A stretch of DNA of 64,000 nt from a virus (lineage: Duplodnaviria; Heunggongvirae; Uroviricota; Caudoviricetes), in IMG/VR virus record IMGVR_UViG_646311923_000012, one strand, 5' to 3'. Each line of letters begins with the position of its first letter. Within the stretch, counting starts at the first letter, position 1. Positions 42,001 to 48,000 of this stretch are shown in pieces. A program made the position numbers.

Positions 42001-45000
42001 CAAGCGAACGGGTTTCTGGATTGAGAGAGATCGTGACCCACCCTAACTACATAATCCTGTACAGAGTAGCTGCTTCAAGCATTGAGATTGTAAGCGTGAC
42101 ACATTCTCGGCGACAATTTCCCTTCTCTATCTGAGTTGAACAATTTTCATACTCCCTCTTTCGAGGGATTTTTTTGCCCAAAACAACAATTAAAAACTGT
42201 TGACACAAAACAGTTTTTAATTGTAGATTACATAAACCAACCACCCACCCCGCCCCACAGAACGCCGGGCAATACTTCGAGTTACCAAGCAGTGGTCAGG
42301 GGGTAAGTAGCCAGCCCGAGGCGTATGAACATGACGGCAGGGTTCAACTTTAATAACTATGCAGCAGGTTTTTGTTCCGCTACCCGGCGTTAAGGGGAAA
42401 TGAGGTCAACATGGATACTATCGATCTTGGCAACAACGAATCTCTGGTGTACGGCGTGTTTCCCAACCAGGACGGTACATTCACCGCGATGACGTATACC
42501 AAAAGCAAAACGTTTAAAACCGAAAATGGTGCCCGTCGCTGGCTGGAAAGAAACTCAGGTGAGTGATATGGATTTCGACACAATCATGGAAAAGGCTTAC
42601 GAAGAATACTTCGAAGGCCTTGCCGAAGGCGAGGAAGCTCTCAGCTTCAGTGAGTTTAAACAGGCGCTTTCCAGTTCGGCAAAATCTAACGACTAACGGA
42701 GTTAAAGATGGAATTTAAAGATTTACTAAAAGAAATCCAGGAAATTGCAGCACATGCACTTCACCAACGTCTGAACGAAGTTGAATTAGAATCTGCAACG
42801 AAGAAATACATTGATAATATGGCTCGTAATGTGCGCGATGCGTTTACCGGATTGTACTCTGTTTCGGTAACAAACAACCAGAATACTGAAGAAACTGCAA
42901 AGCGGATTGCCTCGGTGATGGGTTTTCATGTCGAGGAAAAGTATTCAAAAAAAGAATTCTGGAAAACTACAAAAAAATTGCAGAGCGAGAACTGTCATCT
43001 CCTGCGGCAATCGCTTCTTTCTATGAGGAAAGTTATTCAGATGACACAGGATTACCGGAACTGCTCTCATTACTTGAAAAATTCGGAATTATCATGAAAG
43101 GGACTGCGTCGGCGGATTTCACATACTCAATGATGGCTGCTGATGGAGAGCCTTTTCCTCCCGAACTTAAAATAACCCCCGGCAATCATCCGATGGTAAC
43201 AATAAGAGCAATAGAGAATTACTGGTTTAATCCAGTTCAACAATAGTTGGTCTTTGCAATATTTTTAATGGGCCACTACGCCCTTAATCTCGGGCGGCGT
43301 TTAACTCTTTATTCAGTAAATCAGACTGATACTGATTTGGCTTTGTAATGATACTGTCAAGTTTTGATATATGAAATTCAACATGTTCTGGACAGTTAAA
43401 AATGTAATAACCGCCCTTCTCTAAAAAGCCAGAAAGAGCGTTACAGGCAGGGCATGGTTTGTTTGGCATTTTATCCTCCATTAAGGGCTGAATTAAAAAT
43501 GGAGACCAACACGCTGCTACGTGTGGTCGTGCGCCGGACACAGATAAGAATCCGGCACTGACAGTTTACTGAAAGGATATATCCCTGAAAAGTCAGGGCA
43601 TAACACGAAAGTGCACGGCGAAGTCCTTCTCCCTTAGAGCCGTCGTTAAATTTAATTCGACCGTGCGCTTCCGGTTGTGGCAATCCGCGAAATGGCGCGG
43701 CGGTAAGTATGGCGGGGTTATTCTTTCCCCGTTGAGGACACCGGGTTGTCAGGTTGACCATACGCTTAAGTGACAACCCCGCTGCAACGCCCTCTGTTAT
43801 CAATATTCTGGTGACATTTGGCGGTATCAGTTTTACTCCGTGACTGCTCTGCCGCCCTTTTTTAAAAGTGAATTTTGTGATGCGGTGAATGCGGCTCAGC
43901 GCACGCGGAACAGTTAAATCGGTAAAGCGGTCATTTGCTGAGTAACGAGAATGCTCTGTATCCGGCGTTAATTGTTAACTGGTTAACGTCACCTGGAGGC
44001 ACCAGGCACCGCATCACAAAATTCATTGTTGAGGACGCGATAATGGAAAAGTTATCATGTAATGCCAGCACGTCTGAACTTCGTTTCGAAATTGGCGTTA
44101 TCACTGGAGACAAAACATTTATTGAAGACGCCATTAAGCAGAGAAAACTCGAGCAGGACCTGTTAAATGAAGTATGCATTCCTTCAATGCTGGCTCGTCT
44201 GGACCTGCTGCAAAAAGGATATAAACAATGAATACAACATTTGCACTCGTTCTGACAGTTTATCTTGTTTCCGGCGAATCTCTTGAGCTGGTGACTGGCT
44301 TATACGGTTCAATGAAAGAATGCATGGCTGCAGCAGCAGAACAAAAAATTCCCGGTAACTGTTATCCGGTAGATAAAACTACTCACACTAATAATAACGA
44401 AATACCGGCAGGACTTTAAAACAGCACCGTAATTAATATCCGGTTTCATTTTTATATGCCAGCAATGGCAGGGATTTGTTCACCCTTAAATCTGTAATGA
44501 GGTTAAAACACAATGAGTAAAATCTTTATTTGCGCTGCTATTCCTGACGAACAGGCCATAAAAGAAGATAGCGCTGTTGCGGTGGCCACTGCCATTGAAG
44601 CCGGTGATGAGCGTCGCGCACGCGCAAAATTTCACTGGCAATTTCTGGAGCAATTCCCGGCAGCTCAGGACTGCGCTTATAAATTTATTGTCTGCGAGGA
44701 TAAACCCGGCATACCCCGCCCTGCCCTCGATTCCTGGGATACCGAATATATGCAGGAAAACCGCTGGGATGAGGAGTCAGCTTCCTTTGTACCGGTCGAA
44801 CCAGAATCCGATCCGATGAACGTCAATTTTGACAAGCTGTCCCCTGAAGTACAGAACGCAGTCCTGGTTAAATTCGACACATGCGAAAACATCACCGTTG
44901 ATATGGTGATTAGCGCACAGGAATTACTACAGGAAGACATGGCAACATTCGGCGGACATATCGTTGAAGCGTTGATGAAAATGCCAGAAGTTAACGCCAT

Positions 45001-48000
45001 GTATCCTGAACTTAAACTGCATGCCATCGGGTGGGTTAAGCATAAATGTGAGCCTGGCGCTAAATGGCCTGAAATTCAGGCAGAGATGCGCATCTGGAAA
45101 AAACGTCGCGAAGGTGAACGCAAGGAAACCGGAAAATACACGTCTGTTGTTGATCTCACCCGCGCCAGAGTCAACCAACAGAACACTGAAAACGCTGCTG
45201 AAAAAACCGGGGCTGTCACTGTTGCCATTCGCCGCGAATACAAACAGACATGGAAAACACTCGACAATGAACTGGCCTGCGCCCTCTGGCCCGGTGATGT
45301 GGATGCAGGAAACATTGACGGTACCATCCATCGCTGGGCGACAAATGAGGTTATCGACAAGGATCGCGAAGACTGGAAGCGTATCTCAGCATCAATGCGC
45401 AAACAGCCCGAAGCACTTGGCTATGACCGTCAGACTATTTTTGGCCTTGTTCGCGAACGTCCGATCGATATTCACAAAGATCCCGTTGCACTGAACAAAT
45501 ATATCAGTGAATACCTGACGACAAAGGGCGTGTTTGAACATGAAGAAACAGACCAGAGCTCTACTGATGCTCTCCAGCCGTCAGCAGCACAAACTGCTCC
45601 AGTGGAGACGGCAGAATCCGATACTCAAAAAAATGAAATCCTGGTGGAAGCTGAACCATCTGTAGAGCGTGAAGGACCATTTTATTTCGTCTTTACCGAT
45701 AAGGGCGGGGAAAAATACGGCAGGGCAAACAAACTTTCTGGTCTGGACAAGGCGCTGGCTGCCGGCGGTACCGAAATCTCAAAAGAAGAATATTTTGCCC
45801 GAAAAAATGGCACATACACGGGCTTACCGCAAAATGTGGATACCGCTGAAGATTCCGAACAATCAGAGCCGGTAAAAGTTACCGCTGACGAAGTAAACAA
45901 AATTATGCAGGCAGCCAATATCAGCCAGCCTGACGCCGATAAATTGCTTGCTGCATCACGTGGTGAATTTGTTGAAGGGATTAGCGACCCGAATGATCCG
46001 AAATGGGTGAAAGGGATCCAGAGTCGCGACGCTGAGGACCAGAATCAGCCCAACGTGAAACAAAATGAGCCAGAAGCGGAACAAAACAGCCCGGATACGC
46101 AACAAAACGGGCCAGAAGAACAACAACCAGAACCAGCAGTGCAACAGGAACTGGAAAAAGTTTGCACCGCATGCGGTCAGACCGGTGGCGGCAACTGTCC
46201 TGACTGTGGTGCGGTGATGGGGAACGCAACCTACCTGGAAACATTCGATGAAGAGAATCAGGCTGAAGCTCAGAAAAATGATCCGGAGGAAATGGAAGGC
46301 ACTGAACATCTGCACAAGGAGAACACTGGCAGCGATCAGTATCACGCCAGCGATAATAAAACTGGCGAAACAGCAAATCCCTTAATTAAAGTGAACGGTC
46401 ATCATGAAATCTCATCCACCAGCAGGTTGTGGCACCATCTGATGATTGACCTTGAAACAATGGGAAAAAATCCTGATGCCCCGATTATCTCAATAGGTGC
46501 AATATTTTTCGATCCGCAAACCGGAGAGATGGGGCCAGAATTCAGCAAAACTATCGATCTGGAAACTGCTGGCGGAGTCATTGATCGGGACACCATTAAG
46601 TGGTGGCTGAAACAGTCACGCGAAGCGCAATCCGCCATTCTTACCGATGAAATCCCGTTAGATGATGCACTGCTGCAATTACGGGAATTTATCGACGAAA
46701 ACTCCGGTGAATTTTTTGTTCAGGTCTGGGGTAACGGTGCAACTTTCGACAACGTGATTTTACGCCGTTCATATGAACGGCAGGGGATCCCCTGCCCATG
46801 GCGTTACACCAATGATCGCGATGTAAGAACGATGGTTGCTCTGGGACTGGTGATGGATTTCGACGCAAGAACGACTATTCCATTCGAAGGTGAACGCCAT
46901 AACGCTCTGAACGATGCACGTTACCAGGCGAAATACGTTTCAGCCATCTGGCAAAAACTGCTCCCGAGTCAGGCTGATTTTTGATGTTCAACCCATATCG
47001 CCGCCCACCAGCTATAGTGGCGGCGGTCATGCTGTAAAGGCACGTGACCACATGTACGAATTAACTCTATCTCCAGCAGAGATTAAAGAGATCACGAAAT
47101 ACGAGCGATACACAAAACAGCAACACCAGTTAAGACTGCACGGCATCCCATTTGTAATCGGCCCTAAAAACGAACCCATAGTTCTCCGCAGGGATATTCC
47201 ACACGGTCTGACAACGATGCCAAAAACATCTGAACTGGTTTCTGCTGAACCCGATTTTGAGGCGCTGAACAATGGGAAGACCAAGAAAAAATAAAAAAGA
47301 TAATGTACTGCCACCGCGGGTTAGATCGAATGGTTACAGTTACGTGTGGAAACCCGAAGGAAGTACAAGAAGTATAGGGCTAGGAAGAGTGCGGAAAACC
47401 AGCGTAGCTAAAGTCTGGCAAAATTATGAACTGGAAAAAGCAAAACTCCACAACATAATGACCGTAGCTAAATTGTGGCACATGTTTATGGACTCCCCTG
47501 CATTTACAGAACTGGCCCCCCGAACCCAAAAAGATTATCGACAACATCAGAAGGCGTTGCTGATGGTATTCGGAAAAGTGCTTGCTGATAATGTCAAAAC
47601 TGAGCAGGTAAGAATTTTCATGGATAAACGAGGGCTTGAGAGCAAGACCCAGGCAAATCATGAACTGGCAAGCCTGAGTCGAGTATACGGGTGGGGATAT
47701 GAGCGTGGGTATGTGAAGAATAACCCATGCAAAGGAGTCAGAAAATTCTCTCTTAAAGCCCGCACTGTTTACATCACCGATGAACAGTATGCGGCGATAT
47801 ATGCGGAAGCAATTCCACAGTTACGCATTGCAATGGAGATTTCCTATCTCTGTGCGGCAAGACTCGGTGATGTGCTTGAGTTGAAATGGCAGGATATTAT
47901 GGATAAAGGGATCTACATTGAGCAAAACAAAACCGGCACCAAACAAATCAAGGAATGGTCACCGCGATTACGTACAGCGATCCAGTTAGCCCGAAATGTA

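Follow-up and report, generated by a model that had tools for sequence, protein, structure and literature searches.

A mosaic relative of RecE with a predicted DEDDh exonuclease domain, encoded by the intact form of ydfE in a Qin-like lambdoid prophage

The DNA analysed here is a stretch of 64,000 nucleotides from a tailed virus of the Caudoviricetes (IMG/VR record IMGVR_UViG_646311923_000012), referred to below as the window. On its + strand, at 44513..46984, it contains a complete ATG-started open reading frame (ORF) of 823 amino acids (aa), whose product ends in a predicted DnaQ-like DEDDh exonuclease of family PF16473 with its catalytic residues intact, and whose central region is shared with RecE, the exodeoxyribonuclease VIII of the Rac prophage. 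This is a true swap of nuclease fold within a RecE-related protein. The protein is the product of an intact ydfE gene, which comes last before the excision and integration genes (xis/int) in an early-left operon of the dicBF type and belongs to a Qin-like lambdoid prophage of Shiga-toxigenic-type Escherichia coli. The initial annotation of this DNA had already placed an 823-aa gene upstream of xis/int, and the ORF, the excisionase-like DUF4224 gene and int were all confirmed. As to its role, we lean, if only slightly, towards the processing of DNA 3' ends in the phage's own metabolism during lytic development, independently of any single-strand annealing protein (SSAP).

In the Pfam scan, the PF16473 model (Rv2179c-like 3'-5' exonuclease) matches aa 641-813 over model positions 1-177 of 177, with E = 6.8e-66 and 221.8 bits against a cutoff of 27. 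The Exo I, II and III motifs that had been read by eye at the C-terminus, DLETMG, WGNGATFDN and HNALNDARY, were all located (Table 1), and their acidic residues and histidine were followed in an alignment of the window domain with T4 DexA and eight enterobacterial homologues (alignment A1); the Exo III pair H796/D801 defines the DEDDh subtype. In an AlphaFold2 model of aa 440-823 the nuclease domain (aa 639-819) is confident, with a predicted local distance difference test (pLDDT) of 80-95, and its top Foldseek match is T4 DexA (8kel/8ken, E = 3.6e-11, probability 1.00). RNase T, a DnaQ domain, Orn/REXO2, ERI and Cap18 come after it, all of them DEDDh folds among the matches listed, and the probability is also 1.00 for RNase T, a DnaQ domain, Orn and Cap18. 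The sole significant sequence match of phmmer in the PDB is a 227-aa 'Exodeoxyribonuclease' chain of 8KEL/8KEN (E = 5.9e-7), which we take as T4 DexA because both the fold search and the literature (PMC12153337) identify it so. In this way the DnaQ-like identity proposed from the motifs is borne out by the family model and by the fold.

The initial annotation also gave Rac RecE a PD-(D/E)xK nuclease, and the same Pfam search agrees, since it assigns to K-12 RecE the family PF06630 at aa 2-178 and the PDDEXK-like PF12684 at aa 615-850 (E = 4e-28). In the 823-aa protein, the scan detected no PD-(D/E)xK family and no match to PF06630 (Exonuc_VIII); no PD-(D/E)xK structure occurs among the Foldseek matches listed, and the RecE nuclease domain used as a tblastn query has no match in the window. 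The NCBIfam equivalog for exodeoxyribonuclease VIII, NF007259, stays below its cutoff (260 bits against 1269), with a match limited to non-nuclease model positions 446-602 of 877. An assignment of the C-terminus to the RecE nuclease family after all is contradicted by the missing PF12684 and by this low equivalog score.

The relationship with RecE lies in the centre of the protein. In a BLASTP comparison with Rac RecE, aa 262-625 pair with RecE 278-591; within this alignment, aa 473-625 are 72% identical to RecE 453-591 and the flanking parts only 20-23%. The alignment ends right before the two differing nuclease domains (aa 625 in the window protein, 591 in RecE), and at the DNA level the window resembles Rac recE only over positions 45937-46386. 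The idea of a different nuclease fold in the RecE position thus holds for the fold itself and is refined for the position: we are dealing with a mosaic relative that shares with RecE the region of aa 473-625, its N-terminus being of the YdfE type and not of the RecE type, and its operon of the Qin/dicBF type and not of the Rac type. The likeness to RecE (K-12 b1350) extends to the large size (866 aa in RecE, 823 aa here), to an early-left operon shortly upstream of xis/int, and to the arrangement of a nuclease at the C-terminus behind a central region with the GISDPNDPKWV motif, a Cys4 knuckle and an acidic linker. On the other hand, the PD-(D/E)xK nuclease of RecE works in the 5'-3' direction, whereas 3'-5' is the polarity expected of a DEDDh enzyme by family, and the N-terminal module is PF06630 in RecE and YdfE_N/YdfE_C in the window protein.

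Both the CxxC..CxxC element and the long acidic linker of the first description were found again. The stretch aa 346-625 contains 56 acidic (D+E) against 22 basic (K+R) residues and is predicted to be disordered in the AlphaFold2 model, with a pLDDT of ~30. The Cys4 knuckle, which may bind zinc, is present in RecE and in most representatives of the family, absent from P0293, and modelled with low confidence. Within the shared region, conservation is highest in the motif RGEFVEGISDPNDPKWVKGI, kept in 9/9 aligned sequences (the window protein, K-12 RecE and seven 50%-identity representatives), whose GISDPxDPKWV core passes the 90% conservation line. This motif is near-invariant across RecE-type and DEDDh-type proteins of several genera, despite its predicted disorder. 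It resembles a short linear interaction motif, and could be a candidate for partner binding or targeting.

Upstream of the central region, the protein shares 89% identity over aa 1-255 with ydfE (b1577), the pseudogene in the Qin prophage of K-12 that gave the Pfam families YdfE_N and YdfE_C their names. The K-12 gene occupies the corresponding place in its dicBF-type operon, but it is cut by IS2 after ~255 homologous codons and has neither linker nor nuclease. Homologues at 99% identity carry precomputed PF27430 and PF27432 matches, and the window protein was assigned to these families via those homologues. Searches for the YdfE-type module found 122 clusters, and all the named ones are from Escherichia or Shigella. 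A homology between YdfE-type and RecE-type N-termini was considered and is unsupported (hhalign probability of 2%). Between the N-terminal module and the central region, aa 262-454 are modelled with a pLDDT mostly <50, and the BLASTP alignment with RecE continues here at an identity of just 21-23%.

A wider view of the family came from a phmmer search over 1.84 billion representatives, which returned 11,554 relatives, and Pfam scans of the long ones revealed all combinations of N-terminal and effector modules. The RecE-type N-terminus (PF06630) is joined to the DEDDh domain (PF16473) in P0291 (E. coli), P0293, P0296 (Citrobacter koseri), P0298 (Kluyvera intermedia), P0299 (Atlantibacter hermannii), P0307 and P0321, and the YdfE-type N-terminus is joined to PDDEXK (PF12684) in P0300 and in locus L103, and to a third C-terminal domain of ~280 aa in P0301 (Klebsiella aerogenes), P0309, P0310, P0332 and P0365. 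Compared at the DNA level with L103, which combines a YdfE-type N-terminus, PDDEXK and RecT, the window is similar (80%) over 43528-46386, a stretch ending at codon 625; compared with L026, of RecE-type N-terminus and DEDDh domain, the similarity takes in the operon upstream as far as 44517 and then resumes over 45872-46993. By these comparisons, N-terminal and effector modules are shuffled at sharp breakpoints placed at codons ~454 and 625. Locus L103 (L103:5138-8600) holds a natural hybrid made of a YdfE-type N-terminus 87% identical to that of the window protein, the central region, a RecE nuclease 100% identical to that of K-12, and recT, which indicates that the N-terminal module and the nuclease/recT cassette assort independently.

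The third C-terminal domain, known from five representatives, has no Pfam match at threshold. A sub-threshold match to Rad52_Rad22 (PF04098) occurs in 5/5 members (best E = 0.0027, 17.5 bits against a threshold of 20.3) and falls on the motif DGEAQKKSLTDALKKALSLLGFSADVWLG. The gene of P0301 (L181:5001-7337) directly follows a Gam-like gene, in the order KilR, an unnamed ORF, Gam, P0301, Gp157, DUF3268, Exc and Int. An SSAP of the Bet/Erf/RecT type was tried as an identity for this domain and rejected, with E = 0.08 for lambda Bet by blastp, hhalign probabilities of <1% for Bet, Erf and RecT, and an empty PDB profile search. As a lead that rests on a sub-threshold signal, the domain may be a Rad52-like annealase fused to the platform, this being the N-terminal and linker part that the effectors share. 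In public records, these proteins are labelled 'exodeoxyribonuclease VIII' or 'hypothetical'.

The lack of a RecT-like partner, remarked on in the initial annotation for the genes downstream, was confirmed by tblastn in the window and in a set of 80 DEDDh loci. Two sets of 80 IMG/VR loci, the best-scoring ones for each query and therefore close relatives rather than independent samples, were classified with K-12 RecT, lambda Bet, lambda Exo and P22 Erf as tblastn probes. With the central region as a query, 80/80 loci carry the DEDDh module (64 with a YdfE-type and 14 with a RecE-type N-terminus), and RecT, Bet, Erf and lambda Exo were found in 0/80 of them; with the RecE nuclease as a query, recT lies immediately downstream in 80/80 loci, a clear difference from the window gene, which has no such companion. 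A six-frame tblastn search of the window detected none of RecT, Bet, Erf, lambda Exo and the RecE-type nuclease, and none of these is annotated in the near-identical RefSeq prophage. The DUF4224 gene and int directly downstream leave no space for an SSAP gene, and between the repressor and int there is no unassigned ORF of a size that would suit one. The DEDDh domain exists as well in truly stand-alone genes of 189-190 aa, 57-60% identical, in prophages of Salmonella and Citrobacter, where they come last before the excision/integration genes or the prophage end, in the same terminal slot; no SSAP domain was found in their operons. One apparent further case, the gene of locus L011 split in three ORFs (456, 157 and 183 aa), is an artefact of N-runs in the assembly, so that P0073 is the C-terminus of a fused gene and not a stand-alone protein.

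In E. coli the DEDDh form predominates and outnumbers the form with the RecE nuclease. The DEDDh module occurs in 4225 of 5426 complete E. coli genomes (~78%), where it sits at 9023 places in all (median 2 per genome, at most 8), and the RecE nuclease module in 1743 of the 5426, at 1835 places, with recT under the end of the RecE-nuclease match among the matches listed. A 90%-identity cluster around P0288, which is 84% identical to the window protein, holds 23,183 members of the same architecture, and the architecture is also found in complete phage genome records such as Tritos, HannyBb and mEp460. Among 46 distinct 823-aa alleles, the ratio of nonsynonymous to synonymous substitution rates (dN/dS) is 0.20 overall, with values of 0.15 in the N-terminal module, 0.13 in the middle segment and 0.14 in the DEDDh domain, 0.21-0.24 in the linkers (0.24 in the first acidic linker) and 0.44 in the Cys4/acidic segment; allele pairs are not independent, and the direction is clear. 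By this measure all modules are under purifying selection. These data bear on a further reading, in which the gene is a non-functional mosaic in decay that illegitimate recombination left behind in a defective prophage. That reading could draw on the truncation of K-12 ydfE by IS2, on the frameshifts in several other genes of the matching prophage of strain RM8352 and on the shortened ORFs at some IMG/VR loci (the exact 823-aa ORF occurs in 49/80). Decay is already contradicted by the selection and conservation data, that is, by an intact ORF with intact catalytic residues, by dN/dS values of 0.13-0.24 in 5/6 segments with the Cys4/acidic one as the sixth, and by the architecture kept in that large cluster and in those phage genomes, and we regard it as highly improbable.

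The arrangement is not rare, and it is already annotated as an exonuclease. RefSeq names the protein 'exonuclease' or '3'-5' exonuclease', with '3'-5' exoribonuclease' in many further labels. The label 'exonuclease VIII' stands on proteins with a DEDDh nuclease domain or with no recognisable one, such as OV696610.1 (Tritos), PV340562.1, ON470583.1, K. aerogenes WP_423979005.1 and others. As regards the nuclease domain, the name exodeoxyribonuclease VIII is incorrect; it was apparently carried over by way of the N-terminal or central regions that the proteins share. Among the open-access literature, we found no paper describing a DEDDh/RecE mosaic, a RecE with a DEDDh domain or an exonuclease function of ydfE, and K-12 ydfE is mentioned there solely as a pseudogene able to share a transcript with dicB and ydfD. 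The novelty seems to lie in the explicit map of modules, in the strict association of RecT with the PD-(D/E)xK nuclease, and in the predominance of the DEDDh allele, whose truncation in K-12 probably accounts for its unstudied status.

By family, the C-terminal domain would be a Mg2+-dependent two-metal exonuclease that removes nucleotides from free 3'-OH ends, and its substrate is most probably DNA, because DexA is its closest relative and the gene is allelic with that of the DNA exonuclease RecE. T4 DexA is the closest solved structure, with the same DEDDh catalytic residues, and is itself a phage-encoded 3'-5' DNA exonuclease that prefers single-stranded DNA (PMC12153337). It differs in being a stand-alone protein of 227 aa with extra loops, whereas the window domain sits on a platform of 640 aa, with an identity of 23-26% between the two, and in coming from a virulent phage with modified DNA, whereas the phage here is temperate.

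An RNA substrate has its own case. The protein would then be a 3'-5' exoribonuclease like Mycobacterium tuberculosis Rv2179c, the founder of PF16473, with which it shares the Pfam family and the DEDDh fold, and might process or degrade RNAs of the host or of the operon, the dicF precursor for example. Rv2179c is RNase AS, an RNA-specific stand-alone enzyme. The family name, the many 'exoribonuclease' labels in RefSeq, the presence of RNase T, Orn and REXO2 among the structural neighbours after DexA, and a dicF small RNA gene 650 bp upstream all speak in its favour. We nevertheless give this reading only a slight chance, in view of the sole PDB sequence match being DexA, a DNase, of an Rv2179c that was recovered neither by phmmer against the PDB at E <= 1 nor in the top 50 Foldseek matches, of the allelism with recE, and of a DicF maturation that is attributed to RNase III and RNase E.

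Another use of a DexA-like enzyme is defence. Kang et al. (2025, PMC12153337) report that a stand-alone E. coli homologue of DexA, EcD ('HREX'), digests T4 DNA containing 5-hydroxymethylcytosine (5hmC) and not unmodified double-stranded DNA, and protects cells against T4; EcD is the only E. coli relative with experimental data. Being DexA-like too, the window protein might likewise be a prophage-encoded defence or superinfection-exclusion nuclease that degrades incoming phage DNA, for instance the 5hmC-modified DNA of T-even phages, and shields the lysogen. Up to eight copies per genome, all in prophages, would suit exclusion, and the neighbouring gene dicB is also relevant here, as Ragunathan and Vanderpool are said to have found in 2019 that it confers phage resistance. 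Several observations make this rather unlikely in our opinion. The 5hmC-recognition residues of DexA, which EcD is reported to keep, are not conserved in the window domain, where W152 aligns with T766 and D169 with V780, an alignment that is indicative and of moderate reliability at 23-26% identity (about 25%); at the D169 position there is no acidic residue in 9/9 enterobacterial sequences of the alignment. Among the tetramer-contact residues of DexA, S87 aligns with P715 and D90 with D718, so that the Asp whose loss marks the EcD type is kept. The termini of EcD, deduced from cloning primers (MIDTET…/…TIPETY), differ from those of the window subfamily (MIDLETMG…/…SQADF), which places EcD outside it. 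EcD-type termini were absent among the 430 relatives retrieved, the accession lists of eight candidate clusters do not include EcD (HAK9828821.1), and its 20-nt primer core gave chance matches only in viral and genome collections. Moreover, repression of the operon is to be expected in a lysogen, the PADLOC result is just a generic DEDDh match of 20 bits, and defence leaves unexplained both the fusion to a RecE-type platform and the allelism with recE-recT. According to the same paper (PMC12153337), homologues of DexA in bacteria are commonest in Escherichia, Citrobacter and Klebsiella, and are missing from K-12; for the ydfE subfamily, this absence is due to the IS2 that cuts K-12 ydfE (L004:6079-6999) upstream of the DEDDh domain. 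The relatives that we examined are prophage early genes next to xis/int, and not chromosomal defence islands.

A third possibility would make the protein a nuclease of lytic growth that degrades host DNA, for nucleotide salvage or host shutoff, and has no link with recombination. It builds on the part that DexA, the closest characterised relative, takes in host DNA scavenging (PMC12153337; T4 annotation), and on an early operon shared with the host-directed functions DicF, DicB and YdfD. An exonuclease needs ends, though, and no companion endonuclease was seen in the operon; the RecE-type platform is again left unexplained. We know of no temperate lambdoid phage that degrades the host chromosome, and consider this reading quite improbable.

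The processing of DNA 3' ends without an SSAP, the role that we slightly favour, could proceed as follows. Once the operon is derepressed on prophage induction, the protein would be made, and its N-terminal and linker platform would bring the nuclease to the DNA substrates of RecE, namely linear ends and recombination or replication intermediates. There, the DEDDh nuclease would trim or degrade 3' ends with no annealing protein of its own, much as T4 DexA acts when double-strand breaks are processed and DNA is degraded. The two cassettes move in different company, the DEDDh one alone and the PD-(D/E)xK effector always with recT. Three observations connect the scaffold with recombination: RecE is a recombination exonuclease, P0301 follows a Gam-like gene and the C-termini of the P0301 type have a consistent but sub-threshold Rad52 signature.

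Some considerations weigh against such a role. Activity, polarity and substrate are assigned by family for the window protein and for the fused members alike, and PF16473 is named after the exoribonuclease Rv2179c, so RNA may be a substrate. A 3'-5' exonuclease would destroy the 3' tails used in annealing or in RecA-type recombination, and a pro-recombination role is therefore not obvious. An SSAP of a very divergent or new kind could escape the RecT, Bet and Erf probes. The AlphaFold2 model of aa 1-460 is poor (mean pLDDT 46, predicted template modelling score 0.25) because the alignment is shallow, with 32 sequences mostly >65% identical. The timing of expression would follow from operon position, and a scan for consensus promoters and terminators gave site counts at or below the shuffled expectation. 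Finally, the N-terminal ~560-600 residues of RecE itself are of unknown function (PMC11611040, a 2023 review).

Regarding the locus, the 823-aa product is 100% identical to RefSeq WP_000034468.1 'exonuclease', present in genomes of Shiga-toxigenic E. coli O121, O103 and O45, and PHROG 2082 covers it end to end (823/823 positions). Window positions 29860-51195 are 99% identical to a prophage of E. coli O121 RM8352. The dicBF-type operon is complete and comprises the cI/DicA-like repressor, relBE, ydfA, ydfB, a 129-aa ORF, DicF, dicB, the ydfD-like gene, the nuclease gene, DUF4224 and int (Table 1); the toxin-antitoxin pair relB/relE (41656-42134) is inserted between the repressor and ydfA. Three prophage tRNA genes lie at 29901-30150 on the minus strand, Arg-tct, Arg-tcg and one with a CAT anticodon, which is Met according to ARAGORN and Ile according to RefSeq in the matching prophage. 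Just beyond the integrase end of the prophage, at 49103-50464 (+), we find the type III effector gene espK, named after the RefSeq annotation of the matching region, which adjoins the remnant of a tail-fibre-assembly gene. The ORF at 51226-52797 (-) encodes an IS66-family transposase (PF03050, E = 1e-101) within a stretch of ~2.7 kb (51196-53894) that is missing from the otherwise collinear RM8352 genome. Positions 1125-6252 and 53895-58692 both match one J/lom/tail-fibre segment at 88-92% identity, which points to a tandem of two lambdoid prophages or prophage remnants.

Table 1. Segments and motifs of the 823-aa protein and neighbouring genes, in window coordinates.
Feature	Position	Strand	Residues and remarks
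YdfE-type N-terminal module	44513..45292	+	aa 1-260; Pfam YdfE_N (PF27430) and YdfE_C (PF27432)
Middle segment and first acidic linker	45296..45874	+	aa 262-345 (helical in a low-confidence model) and aa 346-454
Central region common to Rac RecE	45875..46387	+	aa 455-625; predicted disordered
Near-invariant motif RGEFVEGISDPNDPKWVKGI (RGEFxxGISDPNDPKWVxGI)	45959..46018	+	aa 483-502
Cys4 knuckle, C-x2-C-x7-C-x2-C	46163..46207	+	aa 551-565; CxxC pairs aa 551-554 and 562-565
Module junction …GETANPLI	46364..46387	+	aa 618-625; similarity to PD-(D/E)xK-type genes stops
Predicted DEDDh 3'-5' exonuclease domain, PF16473 / T4 DexA-like	46433..46951	+	aa 641-813
Exo I, D646 and E648	46448..46456	+	motif DLETMG, aa 646-651; invariant in A1
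Exo II, D746 (DexA D119)	46748..46750	+	motif WGNGATFDN, aa 739-747; invariant in A1
Exo III, H796 and D801 (DexA H186 and D191)	46898..46915	+	motif HNALNDARY, aa 796-804; invariant in A1
DicF small RNA gene	43806..43857	+	Rfam RF00039, 77 bits against a gathering score of 48; upstream, same operon
dicB	44043-44231	+	annotation of near-identical RefSeq prophage and PHROG match; upstream of the nuclease gene
ydfD-like DUF1482 gene	44228-44419	+	annotation of near-identical RefSeq prophage and PHROG match; directly upstream
Excisionase-like DUF4224 gene	47052-47294	+	directly downstream of the nuclease gene
Tyrosine integrase gene	47272-48291	+	after the DUF4224 gene

RecE/RecT is a workhorse of recombineering, and here its central region, in other genomes its N-terminal module too, is found joined to a nuclease of another fold and of opposite expected polarity, with RecT strictly accompanying the PD-(D/E)xK form. 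This amounts to a natural domain-swap experiment, from which the role of the platform would be independent of the type of nuclease and of RecT. The DEDDh allele is often present in several copies in pathogenic strains. The finding also bears on the claim that E. coli homologues of DexA are anti-T4 defence genes (PMC12153337), given that the relatives examined are prophage early genes in a recombination slot. In a more speculative line, which we put forward as a tentative and rather doubtful idea, the RecE/YdfE platform might serve the lambdoid phages of enterobacteria generally as a means of targeting, which delivers interchangeable effectors to DNA ends: a 5'-3' exonuclease with RecT, a lone 3'-5' DEDDh exonuclease or, possibly, a Rad52-like annealase. 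If this were true, the DEDDh allele, the commonest in E. coli and missing from K-12, would define an SSAP-independent pathway that could trim 3' ends and so redirect or suppress what the recombination and repair systems of the host do at the ends of phage DNA, or could destroy the DNA of competitors, and the invariant GISDPNDPKWV motif would provide the contact with a host factor.

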